Positions 7,345 to 55,007 of a stretch of DNA of 64,000 nt are shown in pieces. Each line of letters starts with the position of its first letter. The stretch's first letter is position 1. Origin of the DNA: an uncultured Bacilli bacterium (lineage in GTDB: Bacteria; Bacillota_I; Bacilli_A; RF39; UBA660). The stretch lies in assembly GCA_934085565.1 (NCBI GenBank), contig CAKOHG010000003.1, forward strand, positions 112,247-176,246, given 5' to 3'. Made by a program: the position numbers and the translations under genes. The notes under the pieces were generated by a model. The model was given only the letters and a program-made list of their open reading frames with translations, did no database searches and had not been told where the DNA came from.

Positions 7345-7364
7345 TAGAAAAGGGGTAAATTTAA

Positions 7365-7673
7365 ATGAATCAATATTTAATACCTGCCAACACAAAGAAG
7401 TCAAAACTTATTCTTGGCTTCTTTACTTGGATTGATTTAGCAATATTTGGTACAGGTTGTGGTATTACATTACTACTTTTGTTAATTTTCCAAGGCATGG
7501 ATTTTACAACAGCTATCATTGTATTACTGCCTGCTTTGATATCGGGATTTTTAGTTATCCCGGTACCAAATTATCATAATGTTTTACAACTTATTACTAA
7601 TATTGTGACATTTATGTTGGGAAGAAAAAGGTATTATTGGAAAGGCTGGTGTATTAAAGATGGCGAAAAATAA
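7365..7673 (+). CDS. VirB3-like small two-TM membrane protein
   Basis: 102 aa with two hydrophobic helices (LILGFFTWIDLAIFGTGCGITLLLLLIF / TAIIVLLPALISGFLVIPV). It lies immediately 5' of VirB4 and overlaps it by 14 nt. Confidence 0.4.
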   Translation: MNQYLIPANTKKSKLILGFFTWIDLAIFGTGCGITLLLLLIFQGMDFTTAIIVLLPALISGFLVIPVPNYHNVLQLITNIVTFMLGRKRYYWKGWCIKDGEK

Positions 7674-39115: not shown

Positions 39116-40636
39116 ATGAAATTAAGATATAAGATAAGCTTAGTGGTAGTAGCTTTTTTAATTATAGCTAGTTTGTTTTTAGTTCAAAGTTATGCGTTGT
39201 GGTTAACGACTTATGAAGGACAAGAAAATATTTTAAGTGTTGGTTGTTTTGATGTTGACTTAGAAGAATTATCAAAACCAATTTCATTAAATAATACTTA
39301 CCCAATGAGTGATCAAAAAGGACTAACGCAAACTCCTTATAAATTTACGATAAAAAATACTTGTAATACTTCTGCAGAATATACGATTACTTTAAATACA
39401 TTAAAAACAGCTACTATGGATAAAAGTAAAATTAAGTTTGCTTTTACAAGTGGTACTGATGTTCCAACAAGTGGTGTTAATTTAGGAACTTATGCTTCTG
39501 TAACGTCTAATATAAATACAGATTTAGCTTATTTACAAACAGCAAATATTTTAGGTGATACTTTAAATGAATCTTTTATTCTTCAAAAAGGTGTTTTAAA
39601 AAATGAAAATGATACGGCTTCATTTAATCTTTATTTATGGATAGATGAAACAGCTGGGAATGAAGTACAAGGACAAAAATTTGTGGCAAGTGTTAATGTA
39701 CTTGCTAATGCAACTACGGTAGAACCAACGGCAGCAGATACGATTTCTAACTTAGCAAATGGCGCAAATAAATCTTCAACAGATGTTTATACCGTACCAG
39801 ATAAAACAAGTGATAGTTGTACTTATACTGTAGCTTATGATGGAACGAGTGATAACAATTTGAGATATGTTGGGTCTAATCCATGTAATTATGTTACATT
39901 TAATGGTGAAGAAGCAGGATGGAGAATTATAGGCGTATTAAATACTCCAGAAGGCCAAAGAGTAAAATTAATACGTGATGAATCTATAGGAACATATTCA
40001 AGGAGTAATAGCGGTACTGATTGGACAAATAGCGATTTAAAAGAAATGTTAAATAATGGTGCCTATTATAATAGGACAACTGGTCAATATTATAATAATA
40101 GTACGGCAATAACATTGGATTTTACAAGTACCGGTTTAACAGAAGAAGCCAGAAATCAAATAGATACGGTAACATGGAATTTAGGCGGATCAAGTGTTTA
40201 CAGTAGTGCAAATACAATTCAATTTTATACATATGAAAGAGGCACAGATGTATATAGTTGGGAATATCCAACTAAATGGCAAGGAAAAGTTGGATTAATG
40301 TATCCTTCTGATTACGGTTATGCCACGAGCGGAGGAAGTGACAGTAATCGAACCAGCTGTCTAAATAAAGAATTATATGAGTGGGATGATAGCTCTTATA
40401 GTGATTGTAAAAATAATGATTGGCTTTATAAATCTAGTACATATCAATGGACACTAACTTCGTATTCGGCTAATGATAGTGATGCATTTTACACCACTGA
40501 CAGTGGAGCCGTTTATATTGGCAGTCCATCAGAACCTCTGGCAATCCTTCCTTCGGTTTATTTAATATCTAAAACAACGATTTTAAGTGGAGAAGGTACT
40601 CCAGAAAATCCATATACAATAGGATTAAGTGAATAA
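39116..40636 (+). CDS. Secreted 506-aa protein with a TasA/camelysin-like (SipW-cognate-type) N-terminal signal region
   Basis: RBS GAGGGAG. N-terminus MKLRYKISLVVVAFLIIASLFLVQSYALWLTTYEGQENILSVGCFDVDL parallels the TasA signal GGGTWAAFNDIKSKDATFASGTLDL. The rest is S/T/N/Y-rich. Confidence 0.45.
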   Translation: MKLRYKISLVVVAFLIIASLFLVQSYALWLTTYEGQENILSVGCFDVDLEELSKPISLNNTYPMSDQKGLTQTPYKFTIKNTCNTSAEYTITLNTLKTATMDKSKIKFAFTSGTDVPTSGVNLGTYASVTSNINTDLAYLQTANILGDTLNESFILQKGVLKNENDTASFNLYLWIDETAGNEVQGQKFVASVNVLANATTVEPTAADTISNLANGANKSSTDVYTVPDKTSDSCTYTVAYDGTSDNNLRYVGSNPCNYVTFNGEEAGWRIIGVLNTPEGQRVKLIRDESIGTYSRSNSGTDWTNSDLKEMLNNGAYYNRTTGQYYNNSTAITLDFTSTGLTEEARNQIDTVTWNLGGSSVYSSANTIQFYTYERGTDVYSWEYPTKWQGKVGLMYPSDYGYATSGGSDSNRTSCLNKELYEWDDSSYSDCKNNDWLYKSSTYQWTLTSYSANDSDAFYTTDSGAVYIGSPSEPLAILPSVYLISKTTILSGEGTPENPYTIGLSE

Positions 40637-40645
40637 TTGAATATA

Positions 40646-40682
40646 AACTAACATTTTTAGGAATAGAGTGTTAGTTTTTTAT
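40646..40682 (+). terminator. Rho-independent terminator
   Basis: 8-bp stem AACTAACA/TGTTAGTT with a 15-nt loop and a T-run. Confidence 0.5.
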
Positions 40683-40862
40683 TTGAAATAAAATTCTTAT
40701 ATTTAATGCTTTTTCTTGATTTTGTTTTTGATGTGATTTTTAAGTATTATAAAGTAGATTTATATGTTAGAATATTGTTACTGTTTTTGGATTTATATCT
40801 TGTCAAAAAATAGTAATATATGATATGATGTCTTCGGTTTGAAAACTTGTGTGTAGTAAGGT

Positions 40863-41555
40863 GTGGTAGTAATGAATAATCAAGTGAATACAATGGATTT
40901 AAATAGAGATAAAACTTTTATATATTCTTTAAATAGAACAATGTATTTTTTTATTAAAAGATTATTTGATATTTTAATGTCTATTATAGGAATTATTGTG
41001 ATGATACCTATAGCTTTAATCGTTAAAATTTCTTATATGTTAACGGGTGATTTTGATAGTATTTTTTATAGTCAAAAAAGAATTGGAAAAAATGGAGTGG
41101 AGTTTAATTTTTATAAATTTAGAAGCATGATTCCAAATGCCGATGAAGTCTTAAAAGAGTTGTTAAAAAACGATAAAAAACTTGCTAAAGAATATAAAAT
41201 AAATAAAAAATTAGAACATGATCCAAGGGTTACTAAAATGGGAAATATCCTTAGAAAAACCTCACTCGATGAACTGCCTCAGGTTTTGAATATTATAAAA
41301 TCGGATATGTCGGTCGTCGGGAACCGCCCGTATTTACCAAGAGAAAAAGAAGATATGGGAATTTATTACAATGATATTATTAAAACAAAACCAGGTCTTA
41401 CAGGTTTATGGCAAGTCAGTGGAAGAAGCAACACAACTTTTGAAGAACGTTTGAGATTTGAACAAGAATATTCCAATACCTATGGTTTTAAGTTAGATAT
41501 AAAGATATTTTTTAAAACATTTGGGGCTGTGTTTAAACATAAGGGGGCTAAATAG
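40863..41555 (+). CDS. Initiating sugar phosphotransferase (bacterial sugar transferase family; polyprenyl-phosphate glycosyl-1-phosphate transferase)
   Basis: KRLFDILMSIIGIIVMIPI TM; KRIGKNGVEFNFYKFRSM; DELPQVLNIIKSDMSVVGNRP (Bac_transf signature). Confidence 0.8.
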   Translation: MVVMNNQVNTMDLNRDKTFIYSLNRTMYFFIKRLFDILMSIIGIIVMIPIALIVKISYMLTGDFDSIFYSQKRIGKNGVEFNFYKFRSMIPNADEVLKELLKNDKKLAKEYKINKKLEHDPRVTKMGNILRKTSLDELPQVLNIIKSDMSVVGNRPYLPREKEDMGIYYNDIIKTKPGLTGLWQVSGRSNTTFEERLRFEQEYSNTYGFKLDIKIFFKTFGAVFKHKGAK

Positions 41556-42685
41556 TGAAAAATCAAGAACCTATTAGAGTTGCTCAGATTGTTGGTAAAT
41601 GGGTTGGCGGCGGCGTTGAGGCTGTAGTAATGAATTATTATAAAAATATTGATAGAACGAAAATACAATTTGATTTTCTTTTCGATGATGATTCAATTGG
41701 TATTCCATATGAAGAAATCAAAAATTTGGGGGGAAGGGTTATTTTGATACCCCCATATCAAAAAATTTTTAAATATCATTATGAGTTGAAAAAAGTCTTG
41801 AAAGATGGGAATTATAAGATTGTTCATTCACACATCAACGCTTTGTCTGTTTTTAGTTTATTTGCTGCAAAGTGTGCAGGAGTACCGGTAAGAATCGCCC
41901 ATAGTCATAGCACGACTAATAGAAGAGAATGGAAAAAAAACTTATTAAAGCAATTATTGAGACCTTTTAGTAAAATATTTGCTACAAATTATATGTGTTG
42001 CAGTGAAATGGCTGGACGATGGTTATTTGGCGATAGAGAATATGATAGAGGAAATGTGTATCTTTTAAATAATGCAATCGATTTAGATAAGTTTAAATAT
42101 AATGCGAAAATAAGAAAAGCAATAAAAAATGAACTTAATATACCTGAATCAACACTAGTTATCGGACATGTTGGTAGATTCGTTGCTCAAAAAAATCATT
42201 CTTTTTTAATTGATGTATTTAATGAGTTTCATAAACAAAATAAAGATGCCGTTTTGATTCTGGTGGGACAAGGTCCACTAATGGAAGAAATACAGAAAAA
42301 AGTCGCGGATTTGAATTTAAATAAAAACGTTAGATTTTTGGGACAAAGAAATAATGTAAATGAATTATATAATGCAATGGATTTATTTCTTTTTCCGAGC
42401 TTATATGAAGGCCTTGGTATGGTTACAATAGAAGCACAAGCAAACTGCTTGAGCTGTCTTGTAAGTGATAAAGTTCCTTTAGCTGCTAAGATTTCAAAAT
42501 ATATAACATTTTGTTCACTCAATAAATCAGCTAAAGAGTGGGCTGAGCAGGCTGCTAAAATGGTGAATGAGTCAAAAATCAGAGGTAGCAAAAAATATGA
42601 AAGTGGCAATTATGACATAAAAAAAGAAGCCAAAAAATTAGAAAATAAATATATATTATATTGGAGGGAAAAAATTGATATTTGA
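41555..42685 (+). CDS. Family 4 (GT-B) glycosyltransferase
   Basis: C-terminal EGLGMVTIEAQANCLSCLVSD with the E-x7-E motif typical of GT4. Confidence 0.75.
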   Translation: MKNQEPIRVAQIVGKWVGGGVEAVVMNYYKNIDRTKIQFDFLFDDDSIGIPYEEIKNLGGRVILIPPYQKIFKYHYELKKVLKDGNYKIVHSHINALSVFSLFAAKCAGVPVRIAHSHSTTNRREWKKNLLKQLLRPFSKIFATNYMCCSEMAGRWLFGDREYDRGNVYLLNNAIDLDKFKYNAKIRKAIKNELNIPESTLVIGHVGRFVAQKNHSFLIDVFNEFHKQNKDAVLILVGQGPLMEEIQKKVADLNLNKNVRFLGQRNNVNELYNAMDLFLFPSLYEGLGMVTIEAQANCLSCLVSDKVPLAAKISKYITFCSLNKSAKEWAEQAAKMVNESKIRGSKKYESGNYDIKKEAKKLENKYILYWREKIDI

Positions 42686-43256
42686 GTATTTTGATTTCGT
42701 TTTAGGACTTGTTAAATTTTTCGTTTATAGAATTTTTTATTTTAATAGATTAAATGTTAAAGGGATACAAAAATTTTCTTTTCATACAAATTTTTGTGTA
42801 AAAAAGAATTCTAAAATTAATTTTGAACGTAACTGTAGAACAAGAAGAAATTGTACTTTTTATTGTTATGATGGTGCAACTATTGATGTTGGAAAAAATG
42901 TTTTTTTTAATGAAGGAAATATAATAAGTGCTAGAGAAAAAATTACAATTGGTGATAATTGCAATTTTGGAAATAACGTTTCTATTTATGACAATGATCA
43001 TGACTATAAGAATGATTTGAACAAGTATTTGACATCTAACGTAACAATTGGAAATAATGTATGGGTTGGAGCAGGAAGTATTATTTTGAGGGGAGTTTCT
43101 ATTGGGGATAATTGTGTAATAGCTGCTGGAACAATTGTAAATAAAAATATTCCAAACAATACAATTGTTTATCAAAAAAGAATGACTATAATTAATGATT
43201 TTAAAGAAACTACAAGAATTGATGAGAATAAGGAGAAGGAGTATGCCAAAAATTAG
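42675..43256 (+). CDS. Hexapeptide-repeat (left-handed beta-helix) sugar O-acetyltransferase
   Basis: IGDNCNFGNNVSIYD...IGNNVWVGAGSIILRGVSIGDNCVIAAGTIV hexapeptide repeats. Confidence 0.7.
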   Translation: MIFEYFDFVLGLVKFFVYRIFYFNRLNVKGIQKFSFHTNFCVKKNSKINFERNCRTRRNCTFYCYDGATIDVGKNVFFNEGNIISAREKITIGDNCNFGNNVSIYDNDHDYKNDLNKYLTSNVTIGNNVWVGAGSIILRGVSIGDNCVIAAGTIVNKNIPNNTIVYQKRMTIINDFKETTRIDENKEKEYAKN

Positions 43257-44043
43257 TGTAATAATGGGAATTTACAATACAAAGAGTAAGAAATATTTGG
43301 AAGTATCTATAAATTCTATTCTTTCTCAAACATACAAGGATTTTGAATTGATAATATGTGATGATGGATCATCTAATGATTGTGTAAAATGGGCCAAAGA
43401 AATATGTAAGAATGATAACAGAGTGATTTTTATAAAAAATGATACTAATCGTGGATTGGCATATACATTAAATCATTGTTTAAAATATGCAACAGGTGAA
43501 TTTGTTGCTAGGATGGATGATGACGACTTTTCACATATTGATAGATTTGAAAAACAAGTTAATGTTTTAGAAAAAAATAGAGATATAGATTTGGTGTCTT
43601 GCAACATCAATCTTTTTGATGACAATGGAGTGTATAATTCTTTAAAGTATCCAGCGGATATTAAGAATAAAGATTTTTTGTTTAATAGTCCAATTGTCCA
43701 TCCTGCGATAATGGCTAGAAAGTCTGCATTTGATAAAGTTGGGGGATATAAAGATAGTAAATATACCATTCGTGTTGAGGATTACGATCTTTTTATGAGA
43801 ATGAAGGCTGCAAATATTAAAATGTATGTCATTCAGGATATTTTATTTGATTATAGAGATGATCAGGCAAATTCTATTCGAAGAAAAAAATACAAATATA
43901 GAATTAATGAATTTTTTGTGAGATTAAATGGATTTAAAAAATTGCATCTGCTTCCTAAAGGATTAATATATGCATTTAAGCCGCTTATTGTTGGAATATT
44001 ACCTGTTAATGTAATTAGAAAAATAAGAGAGAGGAAGAAATGA
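43243..44043 (+). CDS. Family 2 glycosyltransferase
   Basis: The track starts at 43195; the ATG at 43243 with RBS AGGAGAAGGA is likelier. ISVIMGIYN...ICDDGSSND...ARMDDDD. Confidence 0.75.
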   Translation: MPKISVIMGIYNTKSKKYLEVSINSILSQTYKDFELIICDDGSSNDCVKWAKEICKNDNRVIFIKNDTNRGLAYTLNHCLKYATGEFVARMDDDDFSHIDRFEKQVNVLEKNRDIDLVSCNINLFDDNGVYNSLKYPADIKNKDFLFNSPIVHPAIMARKSAFDKVGGYKDSKYTIRVEDYDLFMRMKAANIKMYVIQDILFDYRDDQANSIRRKKYKYRINEFFVRLNGFKKLHLLPKGLIYAFKPLIVGILPVNVIRKIRERKK

Positions 44044-44047
44044 GAAA

Positions 44048-45364
44048 ATGATTATTTATGAATTACTAATTACTGTTATAATTTTCTGGATAATATCAAT
44101 TGTTGTAAGAAAAGATTTATTTTCTCCAGAATCATTATTATGTATATCATATATATTAGCAATTGTTTGTGCAATCTATAATATAGATAATTGGGATATT
44201 AATTTGCATTACAACACATATTTGGTAATAGTCATTGGTATTTTTAGTTTTTTTCTTCCATCTTTATTTTTTTATTTTTTTCACAAAAACAAGAATGCTA
44301 AAAATATATCAAAAAAATTAGAATGGATAGAAATAAAAAGTGGAAAACTGATGTTTTTAAACGTTATATCTTTAATTATTATGATGATATATTCCATTTA
44401 TTTTATAAAAGCTCTTGGAGGTTTTGGTGCACTTTTAAATTTCAGTAATGCAATGGAGATTTATAGAAATAAAACAATGTTACATCATCTTACATTAATT
44501 CCTTCTTGGATAAATTTTTTATCAAAAATATGCAGGGCTGTTTGTTTTGTTTATACATATATTTTAATAAACAATTTGATAATTGACAGAAAAAAAATGA
44601 AATCTAAAAGAAAAATTAAGAATCAATATATAATTGGCATTGCTTCCTACATTCCATTAACAATAATGAGTGGTGGAAGATATGATTTGATAGTATATAT
44701 TATTTACATAATTGTCGTCTTTAGCATTTTATTTACAATACACAACAAAAAAAGACTTCAGACAGGAAAAATATTAAAAATAGGTTTAATAGTTATGCTT
44801 GTTTTAATCATTTTTTCGAGTTATAGAGGATTAGTAGGAAGGACTGCTGAAAGTAATACTATCGATTATATTACTGAATATTTTGGAGGGTCTATTGCAA
44901 TTTTTGATATTTACATGCAGGAGTTGCATCCTAAAGCAGCCTATTTTGGACAAGAAACTTTTTCTGGAATTAGGAAACTGGCTTATCAATTCAAAATAAT
45001 AAATAATCAAGGCTTAAGTGAAGACGCCATGCTTTTTAGAACTACTTATAATAATAAAATTATAGGAAATGTTTATACTGGCTTTAGAAAACCTTATCAT
45101 GATTTTGGAATAGCAGGAGTTATAATTTTACAAATTATTTTGTCACTTATATTTAACAAACTGTATTACAATTGTTTTTATAAGAACGAAAAAAATAAAA
45201 TAAGTTTTAGAATAATTACTACAGGAACGTTATTTTATTGTATAGTTCTACATTCATATTCAGAAACTTTTTTTTGCAATGTATTGTCATTTAATTATCT
45301 TATGCTGTTTGTTATTATATATGCAATTATACATTTTTTAGAAAGAATAGAGGTAAAAATATGA
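44048..45364 (+). CDS. Polytopic membrane protein, putative Wzy-type oligosaccharide repeat-unit polymerase
   Basis: 438 aa with at least 10 TM helices and few conserved residues, lying inside a Wzx/GT locus. Confidence 0.5.
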   Translation: MIIYELLITVIIFWIISIVVRKDLFSPESLLCISYILAIVCAIYNIDNWDINLHYNTYLVIVIGIFSFFLPSLFFYFFHKNKNAKNISKKLEWIEIKSGKLMFLNVISLIIMMIYSIYFIKALGGFGALLNFSNAMEIYRNKTMLHHLTLIPSWINFLSKICRAVCFVYTYILINNLIIDRKKMKSKRKIKNQYIIGIASYIPLTIMSGGRYDLIVYIIYIIVVFSILFTIHNKKRLQTGKILKIGLIVMLVLIIFSSYRGLVGRTAESNTIDYITEYFGGSIAIFDIYMQELHPKAAYFGQETFSGIRKLAYQFKIINNQGLSEDAMLFRTTYNNKIIGNVYTGFRKPYHDFGIAGVIILQIILSLIFNKLYYNCFYKNEKNKISFRIITTGTLFYCIVLHSYSETFFCNVLSFNYLMLFVIIYAIIHFLERIEVKI

Positions 45365-46524
45365 ATGATTCAGAAAAAAAATATTTTGAAAAATTTGGAT
45401 ATAATTATTTTGGACCATTATTATTATGCTATTCTAATTGGCTTATTAAAAATTTAGAGGAAAACAACATAGATAAAGTATACTTTTTAGCTCGAGATGG
45501 CTACATTATGAAACAAGTTTTTGATATTGTTAATAATTCAAAAATCAAATCATATTATTTTTATGCATCTAGAAGAGCTGTAATTGTACCTTATTTATGG
45601 ATGATAAAAAATAAAGAAGAAATCTTTAAAGTAATAGCTTTTAACAAAAAAATAACTGTTCAATCTTTCATCAAAAAAGTTGGATTAGAAGATTATGATT
45701 TGACACACATATTAGAAAGGTATAATTATAATTTGCTCACTGAAATTAATACTGAAGAACTTGAGAGTTTTAATGATTTTTTCGAAGAAATATTTCCGCT
45801 AATAAAAGAGAACTCAAAAAAAGAATGGAAATCTTTGAATAATTATGCCAAGAAAAATAGTTTTGAAGGAAAAATTGCAATTGTTGACATTGGATGGAAT
45901 GGAACAATGCAAAATGCTTTTCAAAAATTATATAAAGATTATGATTTTGTGGGTTACTATTTTGGAATAGTTCCTTTCAATCATTTTAATAATTTAAATT
46001 TAAATGGATATATTTTTGATAAAAATAAAAATATAGAATTTTATCATAAGATGCACTATTTTATAAATATATTTGAATTTTTGTTTTTAGCACAACACGG
46101 TTCTGTAAAACGATATTTAGAAAATGGGAAAGATGTAGAGTTTTATAAATATGAATATGAAAATTCCATTGAGAAGAATATAGTTCAATACATTCAAAAG
46201 TTTGCAATTAAATATGTAAATGATAATAAAAATGCAAAGTTAAATGATGATAGAGTAATCAAAAGATTTATTAATTATTTTTTAAGACCATCATATAAAA
46301 CTGCTAAATTGTTTGGTAATTTAAAATTTAAAGATGATGAATTTAAATATATAGCAAAGCCTGATAAAAAAATAAATTACATTAAAAAACCTAAAAAATT
46401 ACTGAAAGATTTTTTGGATTCTAGTTGGAGAATTGGATTTTTAAAAAGAGTTTTAATGTTACCTTTTCCATATTATTCATTTAATAATATTGTAAGAAAA
46501 ATATATTTAAGTAAGGAGAAATGA
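45361..46524 (+). CDS. Hypothetical protein of the polysaccharide locus
   Basis: ATGA-coupled to Wzy; FLARDGY and IVDIGWNGTMQ motifs; family not recognised. Confidence 0.3.
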   Translation: MNDSEKKYFEKFGYNYFGPLLLCYSNWLIKNLEENNIDKVYFLARDGYIMKQVFDIVNNSKIKSYYFYASRRAVIVPYLWMIKNKEEIFKVIAFNKKITVQSFIKKVGLEDYDLTHILERYNYNLLTEINTEELESFNDFFEEIFPLIKENSKKEWKSLNNYAKKNSFEGKIAIVDIGWNGTMQNAFQKLYKDYDFVGYYFGIVPFNHFNNLNLNGYIFDKNKNIEFYHKMHYFINIFEFLFLAQHGSVKRYLENGKDVEFYKYEYENSIEKNIVQYIQKFAIKYVNDNKNAKLNDDRVIKRFINYFLRPSYKTAKLFGNLKFKDDEFKYIAKPDKKINYIKKPKKLLKDFLDSSWRIGFLKRVLMLPFPYYSFNNIVRKIYLSKEK

Positions 46525-46525
46525 T

Positions 46526-47479
46526 ATGAAAACAAAAAAAGGACTAATATCAATAATAACACCTGTATATAATGGGGAAAAATATATAGAAAGATGTATA
46601 AAAAGTGTACAAGCTCAATCATATAAAGATATAGAACATATTGTAGTTGATGACGGTTCTCAGGATAATACTAAAAAAATTTGCGAGAAATATAATGATA
46701 AAATAATTTTTATTTCCAAAAAAAATGAAGGTGTATCAAATGCAAGAAATACAGCACTTAATTGCGCAAATGGTGAATATGTTTTGTTTGTTGATGCAGA
46801 TGATTGGTTAGAAGTTGATATGTGTGAGTTATTGATAAAAGAAATAGAAAAAAAGGCGTGTGACATTGTAGTATGCGGATACAATAATTATTATGAAAAT
46901 AGTGGTAAAAATGAACCTATTTTATTAAAATTTGATGAAAGTGCTCAAAATAGTTTTACAGAACTTATTTCTGATGAAACAACAAACTTTGGTGGTTTTC
47001 CTTGGAACAAATTGATTCGCAGAGACGTAATAACACATTCATTTGATGAAAGTATACACTATTATGAAAATTTATTGTTTTTTTTGGACAATTGTAAAGA
47101 TGATATTAGATTTTCAACAGTTAATAAATGTTTGTATAATTATTGCATAAATGACACATCAGCTGTTCATAGTAAAAAATATTCTCTCAAAAAATTATCT
47201 GCGTTAGAATCTTTAAAGAAAGTTATTTCTTTATTACCACCTAAAACATTAATAATGCACAAAGTATATTTTATTAATAGTTACTTTAATAACTTATATT
47301 GTATAAAAAAATATTTTCCAGAACATATAGATGACATAAAGAAGTACAATATTTTGTTAGAAGAGTACTATAATGATGTTATGAAATCTCATGACATCTC
47401 ATCAAAGACAAAGATAAAAATATTTTTTATGAAGAAAATGAATTTTATATATGAAATATATAAAGGATTAAAGAAATAA
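46526..47479 (+). CDS. Family 2 glycosyltransferase
   Basis: ISIITPVYNGEKYIERCIKSV...VVDDGSQDNT...VDADDW. Confidence 0.75.
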   Translation: MKTKKGLISIITPVYNGEKYIERCIKSVQAQSYKDIEHIVVDDGSQDNTKKICEKYNDKIIFISKKNEGVSNARNTALNCANGEYVLFVDADDWLEVDMCELLIKEIEKKACDIVVCGYNNYYENSGKNEPILLKFDESAQNSFTELISDETTNFGGFPWNKLIRRDVITHSFDESIHYYENLLFFLDNCKDDIRFSTVNKCLYNYCINDTSAVHSKKYSLKKLSALESLKKVISLLPPKTLIMHKVYFINSYFNNLYCIKKYFPEHIDDIKKYNILLEEYYNDVMKSHDISSKTKIKIFFMKKMNFIYEIYKGLKK

Positions 47480-47480
47480 T

Positions 47481-49043
47481 ATGAAAGAAAATAATAGAAC
47501 TTCTAATTCTTTAAAAAATTCATTTTCTTCGTTGTTAAGTAATATTGTAGCTATTATAGTAGGATTTATTGCTCAAGCATTATTTTTAAAAATATTAAAT
47601 ACTGAATATCTTGGTTTGAATGGTTTATTTACAAATGTTTTAACGATGCTAAGTTTTTTTGAACTTGGGATTGGAAATGCTATAGTGTTTTATATGTATA
47701 AACCACTTGCAGAAAATAATGTTGAAAAAATTAAACAATTAATGAATTTTTATAAAAAATCATATAGAATAATTGCTTTGATTGTTTTTTCAATAGGGAT
47801 GTTATTATTACCATTTATTAAATATCTAGTTAATGATGTAAATATAGATATTAATATATATATTGTGTATTTTCTTTTTCTCTTAAGTACCGTTGTATCA
47901 TATTTAATGGTATATAAGCGAAATATGTTATATGCTGATCAGAAAAATTATTATATAAATATAATTCATTGTTTTTATTTAGTTTTATTAAATATTTCTC
48001 AATTAATATTTTTAGCTATAACAAAAAATTATTATTTATATTTAATAATTAAAATATGCTGTCAAATATTAGAAAATGTTGTAATAACGATTTTAGTTAA
48101 TAATTTATATCCGTACATTAATGAATCTAATAATTTAAAATTAGATAAAGAAACAGAAAAAAATATATTTCAAAAAGTAAAAGCTTTAATTTTTCATAAG
48201 GTAGGATATATAATTATAAATGGTACGGATAATATAATAATATCAAAATTTTTTGGATTGGTTGCAGTTGGGTTGTATTCAAATTATTATTTAATCATAA
48301 ATTCAGTATTTACCATGTTTAGTCAGGCTATTACATCCTTAACAGCCAGTGTAGGGAATTTATTAGTAAATTGTGATTCTACTAAATCGTTTAACATATT
48401 TAAAAAAATAAGATTTATAAATTTTATTGTTTCAACTTTTTGTGCAACATGTGTTTTATGTTTAATACAACCGTTTATTACTATTTGGATAGGTAAGGAA
48501 TATCTGTTAGATAAAATAATATTATTTGTTTTGGTTTTTAATTTATTTCAAAAACTACAAAGATGTACTTATATGACATTTAAAGATTCTGCTGGTATTT
48601 GGGAAGAAGATCGATTTGTTCCAATTATAGAATCGTTACTTAATATAATTTTCTCAATTTTATTATTAAAAATTTTTGGCCTAGCAGGGGTATTTTTGGG
48701 AACAATTGTAAGTGGATTAGCGTTATGGTGTTATAGTTATCCAAAATTTGTGTATAAGAAAATATTTTCGCGTAGTTATTTTGAATATGCTTTTGAAACT
48801 CTGAACTATATATTTATCTTTTGTATAATTGTATTTATTACATATATTTCAACTAATTTATATTTATTTTCAAGTAGTTTTGTACAATTAATATTTAATG
48901 GATGTCTATGTTTAATAGTGCCATTTGTATTAATTAGTATTGTTTTTAGAAAACATGAAGAATATAAGTATTTTTTAGAACTTATAAAAAAAATTTTATT
49001 TAAAATAATGAATAAAAGTAAATCTGTAAAACACCAGAAATAA
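47481..49043 (+). CDS. Wzx-type polysaccharide flippase (MOP superfamily)
   Basis: 520 aa with 12-14 TM helices; N-terminal pattern SLLSNIVAIIVGFIAQALFLKILNTEYLGLNGLFTNVL typical of Wzx/PST-family proteins. Confidence 0.65.
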   Translation: MKENNRTSNSLKNSFSSLLSNIVAIIVGFIAQALFLKILNTEYLGLNGLFTNVLTMLSFFELGIGNAIVFYMYKPLAENNVEKIKQLMNFYKKSYRIIALIVFSIGMLLLPFIKYLVNDVNIDINIYIVYFLFLLSTVVSYLMVYKRNMLYADQKNYYINIIHCFYLVLLNISQLIFLAITKNYYLYLIIKICCQILENVVITILVNNLYPYINESNNLKLDKETEKNIFQKVKALIFHKVGYIIINGTDNIIISKFFGLVAVGLYSNYYLIINSVFTMFSQAITSLTASVGNLLVNCDSTKSFNIFKKIRFINFIVSTFCATCVLCLIQPFITIWIGKEYLLDKIILFVLVFNLFQKLQRCTYMTFKDSAGIWEEDRFVPIIESLLNIIFSILLLKIFGLAGVFLGTIVSGLALWCYSYPKFVYKKIFSRSYFEYAFETLNYIFIFCIIVFITYISTNLYLFSSSFVQLIFNGCLCLIVPFVLISIVFRKHEEYKYFLELIKKILFKIMNKSKSVKHQK

Positions 49044-49102
49044 AACAGAATTCATTTAATAATAATTAAAAATTATTGCAAACAGAGATTTTCGATAGGA
49101 CA

Positions 49103-49124
49103 AGACTAGAAATAGTCTTTTTTT
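49103..49124 (+). terminator. Rho-independent terminator after wzx
   Basis: AGACTA-gaaa-TAGTCT hairpin plus T7, followed by a TTGTTATAAT promoter-like sequence. Confidence 0.5.
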
Positions 49125-49232
49125 GTTATAATTGATTATTTATTATTTTTTTAAATAAATGAAACAACACTATTTTTCCTCTTTTTATTTTACAAACAAT
49201 GTGAGATAATGCTGTTAAGGTAGGAATTAAGA

Positions 49233-52200
49233 ATGAAAAGGTCAAAAGAGTTTAAAAGAAAAGTTAATGGTTTTACGTTAATTGAACTTATAAGTGTTGT
49301 TAGTATTATGGCGATTATTTTATTAATCGCTATTCCAGCTTATACGACGATTACAAATAAGACTAAAGAAAATATTTATCAATCTAAAGTAACAGAACTT
49401 CTTGCTAAAGCTGAAAGTTATTCAGAAACTTCAAATGTTTTTGTTATGGATGTTAATACTTTAATGCAACAAGGTCTTATTAGTGCCGATAATGAATCCG
49501 GAAATCTAATCGATCCTAGATCAGATCGTAAGATGAATTGTGATATTATTGAAGTGAATTACGAAGGAAATACTTATAAAGCTAATTATATTGAAAATGA
49601 TACTTGTTTAGGAGAAGAAGAACTCAATAACCGTTATGGTATGGGTTATATTACGATTTATGATGAAAATGGTAATGAAGTATCTAATAATACATGGTCA
49701 CAAACAGCCTTTGAAAATTTTCAATTTCGTTTAAAAAATGAAAGTAATTTAGAAAATTTAGTTAGTTTAACTTGGAATGGGGAAGAAGAAAAAACTTGTA
49801 CCAAAGAGGAGTATGATGATTGTCTTTATCAAATAAGTGCCCAACTTATCAAAAATATAACAGTTACTTTAAATGTTGTTATGAATATTAACGGCCAAGA
49901 AGTTAATCAAAAATATAGTGCTCATGGTTTAATAGACCGTGAAAAACCGACAGTTTCAGTAGATGATGTAAATAATGAAAATTATACAACTGATTTAAGA
50001 AAAGTTAGTTTTGTTTTAGATGATAGATCTGGTAGTGGTATTTCTCATTATGCTGTGGTAAGTGATGATATCACATCTTGTGATAATGATGGAATTGTAT
50101 ATCAATCTACTGAAGATGTTCATCCAACAGTTTATCTGGATAATGGCGATTATATTGTTTGTGCAAAAGATAAGGTAGGAAATATTTCTGATATAGATGA
50201 CAAAAGTAAAGTTCATGTTGAAAAAGTTAATTCAAATAACTTTAAAATAAAAGTAACAAATAGTTCTAATAGTAATTGGACAAATAAAGATGTTACTTTA
50301 GCGGTTAGTTGGGATATTGAAAACATTGATTTTTGTGCTTATAAGTTAAATGACGGGGAATATCAACGTTATAATGGTGTTTATGATAGCAAAGGCTTTA
50401 CCTTTAAACCAAATTTTACAGGTGAACAAAAAACAACAGTATATTTTATGTGTTATGATAAAGCCGGTAATAAAAGTAATGAAGCTAACACAAGTGTTTT
50501 AATAGATACCAACAATCCAACGATAACTTATAGTATTCAAAATCAAACAGTTGGAAGCAATAGCTATTATAAAGGCTTAACTTTAAAAGCTGATGTTAAA
50601 GATAATTTGAGTGGTATATCTTCTATTAAATATTGTCAGGGAGAAAGTGATTGTACACCTGAAACAACGGCAACTGGTAGTTTCAGTGTCACTTTAGCCA
50701 GTGGAAAAAATCGTAAAGTTTGTGCTATTGTTGTAGATAAGGCTGGCAATTCTTCTGGAAAAGTTTGTTCATCTTCTTACAATGTCGATGGAGTAAAGCC
50801 AACAATTAGTTTAACTGAAAGTAGTACATCAGGAGAAAATGGCTGGGTTAAAAAAGCTACCATAACAGGTTCTTTAAATGATACCGTAAGTGGACTAGCT
50901 AGTGCTAAATATTGTCGAAGTAGTGCAAATTGTACACCTGATACGACAGTTTCTATTTCTAATAATCAAATCGTGGTGGATATTACCAATGCTTCTAATC
51001 AAAAAGTTTGTATGAATGTCACGGATAAAGCTGGAAATACTTCTAATACGGCTTGTAGTAAAAATTATTATGCTGACAATACGCTTCCAACTGTATCTAT
51101 TGATGTTTCTGCTTCTAATGGAAATGCAACAGTTACGGCAAGCAATGCCAAGGATAATTTAAGTGGGGTAGTAAGTTATCAATTCCGCTTTGATAATGGT
51201 AGTTGGATAACGAATTCTTCTAATAAATATACTTTCACAAACTTAACAGATGGTAATCATACATTTTATGTCAGGGTAAAAGATAAAGCCGGAAATTATA
51301 GTTCAGCTCCATCAAAAGTAGTAACTATTTCTAATGGACCTAGTCTTACTCGTATAGGAGACTTTATATCCAAAAATGCTTCTAGCAATGATAATATGAG
51401 AAATAATTATAATCTTGTACCACTTAATCAATCACAAATTGTAATTATTGATGGTGATGAAGTTTATTATGACAATGGAAAGCCTAAAAATACTTATTAT
51501 CTTGAAGCACAAGTGTTAAATGTTACTTCAAAAAGTTCTTCTTATGGTTCTATTGTAAAATTAATGAGTGAAGGAGCACCTCTTCCTGAATATAACGTTC
51601 GAGTGGATAATTCAACAATTGTTGTTGGAGGGGATGCCAATACAAGAGGTGGATCTGTTCGGGTAGCAACTCTTAAAATAAGTGGTAATTCTATTACAAT
51701 GCCTTATATTAGTTCTACTTTTGGTTCAGCTGGTTTTGAACGAGAAGGTATTGTGGGAATTTCTCATAGTCTTAACAGTGGAACAGTAGGAGTTTATTAT
51801 GACGATTCTACTTCAAGTAAACATAATTATGCTGTTAGAAGTTATACTTATACATCAGGTGGTATTAGCTCTGAAAGTAAATTATCAAGAAATGTCAATG
51901 ACATATACTATTATTTCCATGATATTTATGGCGCTGCTGGTTCCGTTTCTACAAGCCAAGGAACTTATGCTAGACAAAAAGTTTTTGATTATGCTGGTTT
52001 CTTTAATGGAACAGGAATTGTAAGATGTGATGATAATAGTATTTATCAAGATACTCAATGTAATAATAAGAAAGCGGAAAATAAAATTATTGATGTTGGA
52101 AATTATAGCAAATATTTAGGCAGTAATACCCAACAGGCTTATTTTTCTATGACAGCTTTAGGAAATGATAAAATTATTTTAACTATAAAAAATAAAACTT

Positions 52201-52418
52201 ACGATAGAAATAGCAAGACAACAACTTTAACAGGACACCTTTTGTTTTATAAAAAAGAAAATGGTAGTTGGAATTTAAAGAAAGAACTTAATGCTCCTGA
52301 AAATGGAGTTACTTATTCTAATTCTAGGTATTTATCCAATGAAGTATTACTTCCATTAACAACAAATGCCGCTTTATATAATTCTTATGCGGGTCTTTAT
52401 TACATTACTTTCTCTTAG
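49233..52418 (+). CDS. Giant (1061 aa) type IV pilin-like protein with prepilin (class III) signal and five tandem Ig-like repeats
   Basis: N-terminus KVNG|FTLIELISVVSIMAIILLIAIPA is the canonical prepilin-peptidase site (G|FTLIE with Glu at +5). Five repeats of about 95 aa each end in D-K-A/V-G-N-x-S. Ser/Gly/Tyr-rich C-terminus. Confidence 0.7.
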   Translation: MKRSKEFKRKVNGFTLIELISVVSIMAIILLIAIPAYTTITNKTKENIYQSKVTELLAKAESYSETSNVFVMDVNTLMQQGLISADNESGNLIDPRSDRKMNCDIIEVNYEGNTYKANYIENDTCLGEEELNNRYGMGYITIYDENGNEVSNNTWSQTAFENFQFRLKNESNLENLVSLTWNGEEEKTCTKEEYDDCLYQISAQLIKNITVTLNVVMNINGQEVNQKYSAHGLIDREKPTVSVDDVNNENYTTDLRKVSFVLDDRSGSGISHYAVVSDDITSCDNDGIVYQSTEDVHPTVYLDNGDYIVCAKDKVGNISDIDDKSKVHVEKVNSNNFKIKVTNSSNSNWTNKDVTLAVSWDIENIDFCAYKLNDGEYQRYNGVYDSKGFTFKPNFTGEQKTTVYFMCYDKAGNKSNEANTSVLIDTNNPTITYSIQNQTVGSNSYYKGLTLKADVKDNLSGISSIKYCQGESDCTPETTATGSFSVTLASGKNRKVCAIVVDKAGNSSGKVCSSSYNVDGVKPTISLTESSTSGENGWVKKATITGSLNDTVSGLASAKYCRSSANCTPDTTVSISNNQIVVDITNASNQKVCMNVTDKAGNTSNTACSKNYYADNTLPTVSIDVSASNGNATVTASNAKDNLSGVVSYQFRFDNGSWITNSSNKYTFTNLTDGNHTFYVRVKDKAGNYSSAPSKVVTISNGPSLTRIGDFISKNASSNDNMRNNYNLVPLNQSQIVIIDGDEVYYDNGKPKNTYYLEAQVLNVTSKSSSYGSIVKLMSEGAPLPEYNVRVDNSTIVVGGDANTRGGSVRVATLKISGNSITMPYISSTFGSAGFEREGIVGISHSLNSGTVGVYYDDSTSSKHNYAVRSYTYTSGGISSESKLSRNVNDIYYYFHDIYGAAGSVSTSQGTYARQKVFDYAGFFNGTGIVRCDDNSIYQDTQCNNKKAENKIIDVGNYSKYLGSNTQQAYFSMTALGNDKIILTIKNKTYDRNSKTTTLTGHLLFYKKENGSWNLKKELNAPENGVTYSNSRYLSNEVLLPLTTNAALYNSYAGLYYITFS
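50150..51350 (+). repeat. Five tandem ~285-nt intragenic repeats encoding Ig-like domains (signature CxxDKAGNxS)
   Basis: Motif occurrences at about 50161, 50455, 50733, 51020 and 51280, with about 285-nt periodicity. Confidence 0.5.
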
Positions 52419-52420
52419 AA

Positions 52421-52699
52421 ATGAGGGAAAGCATGTTTATTTGTATCTATTTACTTATTTTAAATTTTATAACGTTTATTGTTTTTGGCTTAGATAAATT
52501 AAAAGCTAAAAAACATAAATGGAGAATTAAAGTGAGTACTTTGTTAGGTTTATGCTTTTTAGGCGGATCTTTAGGTGGCTTAATAGGAATGTATACTTTT
52601 AGGCATAAGACAAAACAAAAATATTTTACTATAGGTGTACCACTTATGTTAATAACACAAGTGGTACTTATTATTTATCTATATATTAAATTGATATAA
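52421..52699 (+). CDS. DUF1294-family small membrane protein
   Basis: LDKLKAKKHKWRIKVSTLLGLCFLGGSLGGLIGMYTFRHKTKQKYF matches the DUF1294 pattern. Confidence 0.55.
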   Translation: MRESMFICIYLLILNFITFIVFGLDKLKAKKHKWRIKVSTLLGLCFLGGSLGGLIGMYTFRHKTKQKYFTIGVPLMLITQVVLIIYLYIKLI

Positions 52700-52749
52700 A
52701 TGTTGCATTTTTAAACAAAATAATATATTATTTAAACTATGGTGATGAT

Positions 52750-53868
52750 ATGAAAGAAGAAAATGTTGCAAAAATATTAAAAAAGATAAGAGAAAGTAAA
52801 AATTTAACACAAGATGAAGTGGCTAGTAAACTTAGTCTTGGAAGAAACGCTATCGTGAGAATCGAATCAGGTAAAAGAAAAGTAAGCGCTAGTGAACTAA
52901 GTCAATTTGAAAAGTTATATAATATTGATCTAGAAGATTATGTTGGAACTTCTAAAAAACAAGAGATTAAAGGTATTATCTTGGCTGGTGGCACTGGTAC
53001 GAGACTTTATCCTATAACAGAAGCTACCAGCAAACAGCTTGTTCCTGTTTATGATAAACCTATGATTTTTTATCCTTTAAGTGTTTTAATGGAAGCTAAT
53101 ATAAGAGATATTTTAATTATTACAACGAAAGAAGATCAAGAAAACTTTAAAAGACTTCTAGGGGATGGTACTCAATTTGGTATTCATTTATCTTATATAG
53201 TGCAGCCTAAACCAAATGGTCTTGCGGAAGCTTTTATTTTAGGAGAAGAGTTTATTGGTGATGCTCCTTGTGCTATGATTTTAGGAGATAACATTTATTT
53301 TGGTAATGGTTTGGAAAAAGAACTTTCTAAAGCCATTAATAATGCCATATCAGGAGATGCTACTATTTTTGGATATAAAGTAAAAGACCCTGAAAGATTT
53401 GGTATTATGGAAATAGATGAGTACAACAATGTCTTATCTGTTGAAGAAAAACCATTGCATCCTAAAAGTGATTATGCTATCACGGGGTTATATTTCTATC
53501 CCAAAGGAGTTTCATCTATAGCTAAAATGGTAAAACCAAGTCAAAGAGGAGAACTTGAAATAACGAGTTTAAATGATTTATATTTAAAACAGAATAAATT
53601 AAAAGCAAGATTACTTGGTGACGGTTATACTTGGTTTGATACAGGAACTTTTGAATCTTTATTAGATGCCTCTAATATGATAAGGACAATTGAAAATAAC
53701 AAAGACACATTAATTTGTAGTCCTGAAATAATTGGCTTAAATCACAAGTGGTTATCTTTAGAAGAATTTTCTAAAAGAGCAATTTTATTAAATAAAAATA
53801 AATATGGTCATTGTTTAATGAAGATAGCCGAGAAAGAAATAAAAAAAGAACGTACCAATAAAAACTAA
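52750..53868 (+). CDS. rfbA: Glucose-1-phosphate thymidylyltransferase (RmlA/RfbA) with an N-terminal XRE-type HTH domain fused in frame
   Basis: aa 1-65: LTQDEVASKLSLGRNAIVRIESGKRKVS (HTH_3). From aa 75: KGIILAGGTGTRLYPITEATSKQLVPVYDKPMIFYPLSVLM (RmlA N-terminus), with no Met at the junction (EIKGIIL). Confidence 0.75.
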   Translation: MKEENVAKILKKIRESKNLTQDEVASKLSLGRNAIVRIESGKRKVSASELSQFEKLYNIDLEDYVGTSKKQEIKGIILAGGTGTRLYPITEATSKQLVPVYDKPMIFYPLSVLMEANIRDILIITTKEDQENFKRLLGDGTQFGIHLSYIVQPKPNGLAEAFILGEEFIGDAPCAMILGDNIYFGNGLEKELSKAINNAISGDATIFGYKVKDPERFGIMEIDEYNNVLSVEEKPLHPKSDYAITGLYFYPKGVSSIAKMVKPSQRGELEITSLNDLYLKQNKLKARLLGDGYTWFDTGTFESLLDASNMIRTIENNKDTLICSPEIIGLNHKWLSLEEFSKRAILLNKNKYGHCLMKIAEKEIKKERTNKN

Positions 53869-53886
53869 TAAGGAGCGAAAAATAGT

Positions 53887-54198
53887 ATGACATTACAAGA
53901 ATTAGACAGATTAAGAAATTTAGTTATCAGATCAGAAATAAAGCCAACAGATTCTATAGAAGAAATGGTTTTTAAAGCATACTTAAAACATGAAAATTTA
54001 AAAGATACCGCAGATGAAATAAATAATTTGCAAATTAAAAAGGATAATAATGACTTCATTAAAATTTCTAAAGAAACTGTTTCTGAAATTATAAAAGATA
54101 AAAATAGTGAGTATATTATAAAAGATAAAGAACTTTATGATTTTGTAGAATCAAAATTTAAAAGTAATAAGAAAAAAGCTCAAAAAAGATGGGGATAA
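53887..54198 (+). CDS. Hypothetical protein
   Basis: ORF with RBS AGGAG; no motif. Confidence 0.3.
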   Translation: MTLQELDRLRNLVIRSEIKPTDSIEEMVFKAYLKHENLKDTADEINNLQIKKDNNDFIKISKETVSEIIKDKNSEYIIKDKELYDFVESKFKSNKKKAQKRWG

Positions 54199-54282
54199 AT
54201 ACAATAAAATGCTATTTTTTCTTGTTTTGCATTTTTATATGACTCATGATATAATTTTCATGTTGTTATGGAGGGATAAAAA

Positions 54283-55002
54283 ATGCAAACAACAGACCGT
54301 TTGTTAAATAGTACGTTTTTTAAAAGAGTAGGAGCTTATGTTTTAGATATTTTAATTGTATCTTTGGTAGTTTATTTATTATCATTTATACCATTTTTAA
54401 ATCCAAATCATAATGCTTATACAGAAAAATATAATGAACTTTTAAATTTGCAACAACAATATACAAATAATGAAATTAGTACGGAAGATTATGAAACAGC
54501 TTTTAAACCAATTGCTTATGAAATACATCGTTTAGAAACTAATTATGTTGTCATTGATCTTGTCGTTGTCTTATTATATTTTGCCGTTTTACAGTATTTT
54601 TGCAAAGGCCAAACGATTGGTAAAAAGTTATTTCAAATAAGAGTCGTAAGTAATGATAAAACACCTTTAACAATCGTTAATTTCTTATTAAGAAGTATTG
54701 TTCTTAATAATGTACTTATTTCTGTTATTTTACAATGTGTGATTCATTTTATGAATAGTGAAAATTATTTTAGTGTTTATCAAAATGTAAATCTTGTTGG
54801 TAATATTATTACTTATATTATTATCTTTATGGTTATTGTCAGAAATGATGGTCGTGGCTTACATGATTATATTGCTAATACAAAAGTTATTTTAGATAAT
54901 ACTCCGGCTATTGAAAGAAGAAGAGCGAAAGAAGAAAAAATATTAGATTTAGAAGCTAAAGAAGTTAAAAAGGATACTAAGAAGAAAAAGTCTATAAATT
55001 GA
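54283..55002 (+). CDS. RDD-family membrane protein
   Basis: RVGAYVLDILIVSLVVYLL ... DGRGLHDYIANTKV (R-D-D pattern), 3-4 TM helices. Confidence 0.6.
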   Translation: MQTTDRLLNSTFFKRVGAYVLDILIVSLVVYLLSFIPFLNPNHNAYTEKYNELLNLQQQYTNNEISTEDYETAFKPIAYEIHRLETNYVVIDLVVVLLYFAVLQYFCKGQTIGKKLFQIRVVSNDKTPLTIVNFLLRSIVLNNVLISVILQCVIHFMNSENYFSVYQNVNLVGNIITYIIIFMVIVRNDGRGLHDYIANTKVILDNTPAIERRRAKEEKILDLEAKEVKKDTKKKKSIN

Positions 55003-55007
55003 AAAGT

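Follow-up and report, generated by a model that had tools for sequence, protein, structure and literature searches.

We describe a gene for an unusually large pilin-like protein in an uncultured human-gut bacterium of the Bacilli, whose DNA is low in GC (28.6 %). For near-identical housekeeping proteins, UniRef gives the source as 'Candidatus Ventrenecus sp.'. Its 1061-amino-acid (aa) product is predicted to join a type IV pilin module to six beta-sandwiches and a C-terminal beta-propeller, and we put at roughly 0.55 the probability that it is a modular minor type IV pilin with an adhesin-like role, taken up by a PilB/Com-type filament and probably placed at its tip. The gene lies in a stretch of 64,000 nucleotides, hereafter the window (assembly GCA_934085565.1, contig CAKOHG010000003.1, positions 112,247 to 176,246), beside a Wzx/Wzy-type polysaccharide locus. 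Modular pilins, of which more than 1,200 proteins in 264 architectures have been catalogued, with an extreme case of 860 aa, are widespread, are polymerised via their pilin module and are probably exposed at the filament tip (Raynaud et al., 2021, PMC8179133). The concept is therefore already published, and NCBI already labels the protein 'prepilin-type'; what is new is the scale and the architecture (pilin, six beta-sandwiches and a propeller without a database signature), the cassette-like head and the size of the uncharacterised family that shares the carrier module. The parts of the gene are as follows, numbered as positions of the window.

49233..52418, + strand: modular type IV pilin-like protein gene, 1061 aa, stop codon included (ORF list, translation, Pfam, NCBIfam)
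49233..49271, + strand: leader peptide, residues 1-13 (MKRSKEFKRKVNG), with a predicted prepilin-peptidase cut after Gly13
49272..49643, + strand: mature pilin module, residues 14-137 (AlphaFold2 model, PDB profile matches, conservation, nonsynonymous divergence)
49644..49943, + strand: D1, residues 138-237, a divergent beta-sandwich without the DK(A/V)GN motif, in the conserved family core (AlphaFold2 model)
49944..51368, + strand: D2-D6, residues 238-712, five Ig-like/OmpL47-type repeats that make up the stalk (motifs, hidden Markov models, Foldseek)
51369..52415, + strand: C-terminal beta-propeller head, residues 713-1061, an exchangeable allele

Pilin module, stalk and propeller head

The translation of the open reading frame (ORF) at 49233-52418 begins with MKRSKEFKRKVNG followed by FTLIELISVVSIMAIILLIAIPA, which reads as a class III (prepilin) signal, KVNG/FTLIE, with a leader ending in Gly, a hydrophobic stretch and Glu at +5. 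That this N-terminus is a prepilin-peptidase substrate had been claimed in an earlier reading of the window by a model that saw only the letters and their ORFs (hereafter the original prediction), and the hidden Markov models (HMMs) by which the claim could be checked bear out the signal itself: Pfam N_methyl scores 25.0 bits against a cut-off of 21.2, and NCBIfam TIGR02532 (IV_pilin_GFxxxE) 22.0 against 16.3. In homologue alignments reaching down to ~20 % identity E18 (+5) is invariant, and G13 (-1), F14 (+1) and T15 (+2) are nearly so. The identical 1061-aa sequence occurs on 14 contigs and its 90 % cluster counts 108 members; a 97-100 % identical copy, MBD9074812.1, bears the NCBI name 'prepilin-type N-terminal cleavage/methylation domain-containing protein'.

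In an AlphaFold2 model of the whole protein, built with a 33-sequence alignment (mean predicted local distance difference test score, pLDDT, 80.8), a 52-residue alpha1 helix (residues 16-67) is followed by a small beta-sheet head that extends to ~137, which is the predicted fold of a pilin, a long N-terminal helix on a beta-sheet head. The elements of the head (strands 71-73, 105-111 and 114-120, helix 128-135) are predicted with a pLDDT of mostly 63-88, and its Cys103 and Cys125 are invariant in 61 aligned sequences. A profile of the first ~146 residues, compared with 177,635 PDB sequences, matched type IV filament subunits only, over alpha1 alone: at E below 0.1 all 21 matches are of this kind (E 2.6e-11 to 2e-2), the best being geopilin (2.6e-11) and Streptococcus sanguinis PilE1 (9.3e-10), with PilA, MshA, PpdD and GspG also among them. 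Between strains the pilin module is the most constrained part of the gene, its nonsynonymous divergence (dN) being ~0 and the ratio to synonymous divergence (dN/dS) 0.00-0.05. As far as sequence can tell, the N-terminus is therefore a genuine and strongly conserved pilin module rather than a chance transmembrane anchor, and conservation of the KVNG/FTLIE motif together with the module across a large family likewise speaks against coincidence.

Behind the pilin module the model places six beta-sandwiches (residues ~138-237, 238-332, 333-426, 427-520, 521-616 and 617-712, here D1 to D6) and then a beta-rich C-terminal domain. One DK(A/V)GN motif stands at the end of each of D2-D6 (residues 313, 409, 502, 598 and 684), and D4 and D5 are 39 % identical; these five correspond to the five Ig-like repeats of the original prediction, to which the model adds the divergent sixth (138-237), which has near-invariant tryptophans, W155 and W181, and an invariant D235. 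The stalk scores above the cut-offs of Pfam Y_Y_Y (31.0 vs 26.6) and Big_13 (31.3 vs 27) and, in four stretches, of the NCBIfam OmpL47-type domain NF047446 (73.6 vs 40), and a Foldseek search with the whole model returned only generic strings of Ig/Fn3 domains from the PDB.

Residues 713-1061, modelled alone, give a beta-propeller (predicted template modelling score 0.75). The Pfam search gave no family for this region, and Foldseek matched it to surface ligand-binding propellers, including Bacteroides XusB and BtuG, and also to glycan-active enzymes. The C-terminus had been described from sequence as Ser/Gly/Tyr-rich, and a slight enrichment does exist (S 12.3, G 8.6, Y 8.9 %); given the propeller model and the modest bias, however, the region is better seen as a folded head than as low-complexity sequence. 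With a pilin module at residues 1-137, six beta-sandwiches and a propeller, the protein falls within the definition of a modular pilin given by Raynaud et al. (2021).

The gene is also a mosaic. Compared with the homologues P0002 and P0003, the pilin module and D1-D5 are 97-100 % identical, D6 is 90-91 % identical and the propeller 56 %; compared with P0004, the pilin module and stalk domains are 48-80 % identical and the propeller 77 %. Per-domain Nei-Gojobori estimates for the window gene against L001, from a sister lineage, gave a synonymous divergence (dS) of 0.04-0.22 in the first seven domains versus 1.07 in the propeller, whose dN/dS is 0.32, and no domain exceeds 0.33. These values indicate that the propeller is an old, divergent head allele brought in by recombinational replacement and still under purifying selection, since a dS of 1.07 with a dN/dS of 0.32 argues for a head swap and not for decay or runaway positive selection. 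Such a pattern is compatible with a module that is exposed and acts in ligand binding or as an antigen. Many strains keep the gene intact and under purifying selection, which disposes of the concern, raised with the original prediction, that it might be pseudogenised in relatives.

Filament machinery and the carrier family

If the protein is a filament subunit, a prepilin peptidase encoded elsewhere in the genome would cut it after Gly13, and the alpha1 helix and small pilin head would let a PilB/Com-type type IV filament machine take it up, most likely in small numbers and at the tip of the filament. The six beta-sandwiches may then act as a rigid stalk, ~20-25 nm long by our estimate, that holds the propeller beyond the wall and the polysaccharide layer, where it would bind a ligand, glycan or protein; exchange of the propeller between strains as a cassette is what might be expected of an exposed adhesin or antigen. 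Filament display would widen the known range of size and architecture among modular pilins (pilin, six Ig-like domains, propeller), and it would show that a pilin can itself be the base of a PilY1-like arrangement in which a propeller sits at the pilus tip.

Several observations weigh against uptake into a filament. In the ~95 kb read for this species, which include the window and 10 kb on each side, there is no prepilin peptidase (A24), PilB/ComGA, PilC/ComGB or PilM-O, and no small GFTLxE major pilin was seen in the species' DNA. Within the window, tblastn with PilB, PilT, PilC, PilD and PilM from a canonical Cohnella locus gave no match, and a six-frame scan found the prepilin motif once only. 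At 115 kDa, moreover, the subunit would be without experimental precedent for filament incorporation, the largest modular pilin in the published survey having 860 aa (PMC8179133). The original prediction of no pilus machinery nearby is true of the window, but ~57-62 kb upstream of the pilin gene the same contig (L104) has a filament locus of the Tad/Flp type, which is present also in L108, a 95-96 % identical strain.

L104:1-3301 (~6-9.5 kb upstream of window position 1) and L108:6348-13440: Tad/Flp-type locus (T2SSE, weak RcpC match)

This locus encodes two RcpC/CpaB-like proteins, a 369-aa T2SSE ATPase, polytopic TadB/C-like platform proteins of 298 and 262 aa, two Flp-like ORFs (82 and 85 aa), two ORFs of ~160 aa and a ParA-like protein of 340 aa; the ATPase and the TadB/C-like proteins are ~58-62 kb from the pilin gene. 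We saw no A24 peptidase in this locus. Its assignment to the Tad type is based on the adjacent T2SSE ATPase, the weak RcpC match and a single JGI name, 'Flp pilus assembly protein TadB', carried by a homologue of the polytopic protein, while its small ORFs, Flp/TadE/TadZ-like by eye, gave no significant Pfam or NCBIfam match (the best was archaeal Pilin_N, E 0.025). The Flp-like ORFs begin MKEATG/ELN followed by a hydrophobic stretch, unlike GFTLIE, so that this Tad-like machine, the only filament machine seen in the genome, is probably not the cognate one, which again counts against a filament. That a T2SSE ATPase and platform-like proteins share the contig with the pilin gene nevertheless stands on the positive side.

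The wider clade gives a mixed picture. In three metagenome-assembled genomes (MAGs) of related gut Bacilli (L034, L091 and L094) a PilB-type T2SSE ATPase stands alone, divergent from GFTLxE-type minor and modular pilins and with no PilC or PilD adjacent, and in L087 two major-type pilins, a minor pilin and two modular pilins of 790-820 aa lie within 12 kb. For the most part, however, the pilin-like genes of related MAGs lie dispersed, without machinery in the 10 kb around them, an arrangement that fits filament-independent use equally well and so also weighs on the negative side. Dispersed pilus genes appear to be the norm in the clade, and the missing machinery beside the present gene is for that reason unremarkable. 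The figures from our N-terminal-motif scan of genome contigs describe the matches listed, among which this species is absent, and are no measure of prevalence. The literature on pili of RF39 and of gut Bacilli with reduced genomes offered nothing specific to the clade.

The pilin-bearing loci of these relatives have two layouts. L034:1654-10378 and L087:247-6828 share a synteny of major pilin genes, nfo (AP endonuclease 2), a penicillin-binding protein (PBP) gene and efp, to which L034 adds a solitary T2SSE ATPase of 397 aa and two minor pilin genes, PilC and PilD not being adjacent; L091 and L094 have Lon_C, Gate, two small (pilin-like) ORFs and, in divergent orientation, a T2SSE ATPase. A search with L034's PilB-type ATPase gave 8000 matches at ~65 % identity. 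The PBP of the window and that of L034 are 25 % identical, probably paralogues, and uninformative on relatedness. P0141 and P0163, two prevalent matches of the ATPase search that were considered as the PilB of this species, show the layout of an orphan ATPase with pilins but have 26 % GC and different neighbourhoods and belong to other organisms, and the 'ATPases' with a GPTGSGK motif beside pilin genes in L035 and L054 are FtsK and ABC transporters.

The pilin module itself belongs to a large family. A first homologue search gave 67 relatives of 650-1730 aa, most of which start ...KKG/FTL(I/V)EL..., and phmmer with residues 1-146 against 1.84 billion representatives found 2501 proteins at E <= 1e-3, 217 at <= 1e-10 and 26 at <= 1e-30, with matches that extend over the whole pilin module, beyond the helix. 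Among the best 150 representatives the median length is 651 aa, 109 have at least 400 aa, and 142 carry a GFTxxE motif behind a leader with a median of 4 residues. N_methyl was passed by 58 of the 61 long family members, whose passengers include TSP1 repeats (19), Listeria-Bacteroides repeats (10) and Big_13/Y_Y_Y domains (~7). The family core comprises the pilin module and D1-D2, with invariant D235, P239, D264, G267, G269 and D313. This conservation, set beside the diversity of the passengers, points to a carrier module dedicated to large and varied cargo. It is found in 217 protein clusters (50 % identity) in uncultured gut Bacilli, and with passengers this diverse it could be a major adhesion or colonisation system of prevalent uncultured bacteria of the human and animal gut.

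A separate group of proteins, P0039-P0056 (for example from Ca. Pelethosoma merdigallinarum; ~980 aa), has the Ig-like repeats of D4-D6 but an N-terminal signal of another kind, MRTRQKQRIIIGTLCAIVIGL... Because this signal differs, two distinct anchoring systems seem to carry the same stalk repeats in related uncultured Bacilli, and the pilin N-terminus of the 1061-aa protein looks like a specific choice.

The same evidence on machinery and family leaves room for a second reading, clearly less probable than a filament subunit but the most credible of its competitors. The class III signal might serve for export and anchoring independently of any filament, with alpha1, cleaved or uncleaved, held in the cytoplasmic membrane or the protein in a very short pseudopilus, and the stalk spanning peptidoglycan and polysaccharide so that the propeller is exposed; the class III-signal sugar-binding proteins of the archaeal 'bindosome' of Sulfolobus are an analogy. 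The lack of a cognate major pilin or PilB-type ATPase in the ~95 kb would then be expected, as would the many scattered pilin-like ORFs (120-1400 aa, no ATPase within 10 kb) of related MAGs, several of which hold multiple such loci among the matches listed, and the dominance of large passengers (109 of the 150 best representatives with at least 400 aa). With peptidoglycan genes (PBP, MraY, amidase) and surface polysaccharide genes present, a membrane-anchored protein would need a long stalk too. Yet the invariant Glu at +5 and the near-zero dN across the whole pilin head suggest constraints from subunit-subunit packing and not from mere anchoring, the giant modular pilins of relatives adjoin major and minor pilins and PilB-type ATPases, and PilB of S. 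sanguinis, a modular pilin that has been studied, belongs to type IV pilus filaments (PMC8179133).

On a broader scale, we think it doubtful, though worth stating, that class III signal, carrier pilin module and the two conserved beta-sandwiches form a general system for displaying large surface proteins that replaces sortase/LPXTG anchoring and gets by with minimal, dispersed machinery. If it did, these bacteria would possess a pilin-anchored surfaceome with TSP1, Listeria-Bacteroides-repeat, Ig-like and propeller passengers, and the 1061-aa protein would be cargo of an undescribed bacterial counterpart of the bindosome instead of a classical pilus tip adhesin.

The adjoining polysaccharide locus

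The pilin gene is flanked by the following features.

40863..49043, + strand: Wzx/Wzy-type polysaccharide locus, which adjoins the pilin gene and is not part of the pilin unit (Pfam)
40863-41555, + strand: initiating transferase Bac_transf, conserved (Pfam)
41555-49043, + strand: replaceable cassette (Pfam, no similarity to L001) of GT4 (glycosyltransferase family 4; start 41555), hexapeptide transferase (42675), GT2 (43195), Wzy-like (44048), unknown (45361), GT2 (46526) and Wzx-type Polysacc_synt (47481)
49094-49127, + strand: terminator-like hairpin with T-run between wzx and the pilin gene (free energy, dG, -11.1 kcal/mol, z -2.5)
49124-49132, + strand: extended -10-like box TGtTATAAT, overlapping the hairpin/T-run (read by eye in the sequence)
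52421..52699, + strand: DUF1294 small membrane protein, directly downstream of the pilin gene (Pfam 84.3 bits)
52750..53868, + strand: HTH_3::NTP_transferase (RmlA-like) fusion, 372 aa, conserved right flank (Pfam 46.9 and 237.5 bits)

Pfam agrees with the original placement of these neighbours, that of the Wzy-like gene only by a weak match below the cut-off (E 0.005). The terminator and promoter that had been claimed between wzx and the pilin gene can both be read in the sequence, as the hairpin (dG -11.1) and the extended -10-like box, but a simple consensus scan flagged neither.

The pilin gene adjoins the polysaccharide locus in all strains of the species and in the closest sister lineage. 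In the latter (L001-L004, 83 % identical) it holds the same position beside a different set of GT, Wzy and Wzx genes: aligned to L001, the DNA is 87 % identical over 39523-41561, shows no similarity over 41561-49095 and is 93 % identical over 49095-55147. Because similarity resumes at 49095, the pilin gene is the start of the conserved right flank of a replaceable cassette. The locus of L110 combines a window-type propeller (97 %) with another cassette, one that has a pyruvyl transferase, and its wzx and pilin genes are separated by inserted ApeA-HEPN and NERD/HRDC genes; L112 shares the cassette of the window, but with a NERD-HRDC gene and an opposite-strand ORF in that gap. Co-variation of propeller allele and cassette type, which we considered, is ruled out by L110. 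Farther out, homologues that are 57-69 % identical lie directly after rsmH-ftsL-PBP2B as tandem pairs or triplets, or elsewhere, and those at ~45 % adjoin Laminin_G_3 proteins. To the question, raised with the original prediction, whether relatives carry the gene in their capsule loci, the answer is yes for close relatives and no for these.

Neither conserved co-occurrence nor co-transcription with the cassette is thus seen for the pilin gene. It forms a separate transcription unit within the right flank, which is conserved where the locus varies, and the adjacency is positional and not functional; that it is positional, and specific to the lineage, follows from the independent swapping of cassettes, the insertions in the gap and the location of distant homologues elsewhere.

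It is accordingly improbable that the protein is a component of the polysaccharide system, that is, a scaffold for matrix or capsule under joint regulation with the Wzx/Wzy locus, its propeller binding the strain's own polysaccharide. Such a role could account for the adjacency in all strains and in the sister lineage, for the RmlA-like gene downstream, which leaves the pilin gene between sugar genes, and for the fact that the window strain and L001 differ both in cassette and in propeller allele. It is contradicted by the 97 % identical propeller beside a different cassette in L110, by the defence-type and opposite-strand genes that separate the pilin gene from wzx in L110 and L112, by the terminator-like hairpin and separate promoter-like box in the gap, by the 57-69 % homologues in the dcw region or elsewhere, and by the great diversity of family passengers, which are not tied to polysaccharide loci. 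The same signals, swaps, insertions and contexts tell against the co-expression with a surface polysaccharide that had been proposed. What survives of the pilin-anchored Ig-repeat adhesin or matrix scaffold originally put forward is the pilin module and a multi-domain, adhesin-like surface protein, without the matrix scaffold. For annotation, the lesson is that a neighbouring polysaccharide cassette does not imply a role in that pathway; the swappable propeller makes the protein a surface trait that varies at the level of strains, beside a capsule-type locus.

The gap between wzx and the pilin gene (49044-49232; compare L110:6549-10000 and L112:7787-10000) is an insertion hotspot for defence- or accessory-looking genes and small unknown ones. 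DUF1294 adjoins the pilin gene in L001, L009, L110 and L112 and is absent beside the homologues in L005-L008, an association restricted to close relatives. The HTH_3::RmlA-like fusion (52750-53868), with an XRE-type helix-turn-helix (HTH) at its N-terminus, is kept in all strains seen; the joining of the two domains suggests a sugar-nucleotide enzyme doubling as a DNA-binding regulator. After rsmH-ftsL-PBP2B, L006:10001-16403 and L007:8914-15312 each hold two complete giant pilin paralogues in tandem, followed in L007 by the start of a third. To the left of the cassette, the conserved flank is formed by a 506-aa protein (39116-40636, + strand; its gene is 87 % identical to L001 in nucleotides), which has a hydrophobic anchor at its N-terminus and falls into no Pfam or NCBIfam family. 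On the other side, a 103-aa ORF at 53887-54198 has a weak Recombinase-domain match, and an IS30-like transposase gene (HTH_38 and rve; 55095-56141, + strand) separates the RDD gene from the LemA gene both in the window and in L009; the site is empty in L110, L111 and L112, which makes this a strain-level insertion sequence polymorphism.

Comparison with known systems and other genes of the window

The closest likeness is to PilB (pilin and vWA) and PilC (pilin and lectin) of Streptococcus sanguinis, in which, as here, a class III signal and a small pilin module carry C-terminal non-pilin domains, the host is likewise monoderm, and presentation of the binding module on a filament, probably at the tip, is what we predict for our protein too. 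The 1061-aa protein differs from both in being about twice their size, in its six-domain stalk and its propeller without a database signature, and in that its gene lies outside any pil locus and is known here from sequence and models.

PilY1/PilC of Pseudomonas and Neisseria are also large adhesins with a distal propeller at the type IV pilus tip and variable N-terminal modules (PMC8179133). They are, however, non-pilins that dock on a minor-pilin complex via their IPR008707 propeller, whereas the 1061-aa protein has the propeller as its distal head and supplies the pilin module itself, in the same chain; the propeller gave no match to the PilC/PilY1 family (IPR008707). Among minor pilins, CofB/TcpB (type IVb), GspK and Thermus ComZ have added or inserted domains and are thought to be located at the tip (PMC8179133). 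They resemble the 1061-aa protein in bearing extra structural domains on a pilin fold. Their size is ~300-550 aa, with one or two extra domains, and they are encoded within pilus or secretion operons. To our knowledge, none shows allelic head swapping of the kind seen in the 1061-aa protein.

Com pseudopilins provide the nearest NCBIfam equivalogs for the N-terminal helix, and they too occur in Bacilli hosts, but the scores fall short of the cut-offs for ComGE (30.9 vs 49 bits), ComGC (25.8 vs 75) and ComGD (14.9 vs 70), and no comG genes were found near the pilin gene by Pfam and tblastn in the window. The Com pseudopilins ComGC-ComGG have ~100-150 aa and are encoded in the comG operon. Nor is the protein a Flp/Tad pilin, having 1061 aa and a GFTLIE-type signal where those are small (~50-80 aa) with the Flp motif G/xxxxEY. 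With multi-Ig surface adhesins (Big_13/Y_Y_Y/OmpL47-type) it shares the domain families of the stalk repeats; it is anchored by a pilin module and not by LPXTG, a lipoprotein signal or an ordinary signal-anchor. That it is after all a common Ig-repeat surface protein held by a membrane anchor, with no relation to type IV filaments, is very improbable: such a protein would need neither peptidase nor cognate machinery, of which none was found in the ~95 kb read, and N_methyl is short and scores modestly above its cut-off, but a chance anchor would not be expected to keep E18 invariant and G13, F14 and T15 nearly so across the family, to have a full pilin-like head with a conserved Cys pair behind the helix, or to match T4F (type IV filament) subunits in 21 of 21 PDB profile matches, and the non-pilin P0039-P0056 bear the same Ig repeats on a clearly different signal.

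The far left of the window contains a conjugation-like type IV secretion system (T4SS) cluster (256-10010, + strand), which continues upstream in L104:8366-9983. It includes at least seven proteins (126-541 aa) with a signal peptide and, in common, a C-terminal hairpin of two transmembrane segments; in those at L104:8366-8746 and 8820-9983 the hairpin narrowly misses the cut-off of Pfam T4SS_pilin (PF18895; E 4e-5 and 2e-4), and the hairpin proteins inside the window have no Pfam match at E <= 1e-4. There follow a polytopic protein of 710 aa and a protein of 102 aa, which by eye resemble VirB6 and VirB3 respectively, then a TraC-like protein (PF26593) and an ATPase of the VirB4/TraG-P-loop kind, and a VirD4-type coupling protein is found further upstream in L108. 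Housekeeping genes (spoIVA, HU and pyruvate kinase) are interspersed in the cluster, and the presence of multiple VirB2-like fusions in a single T4SS locus is unusual.

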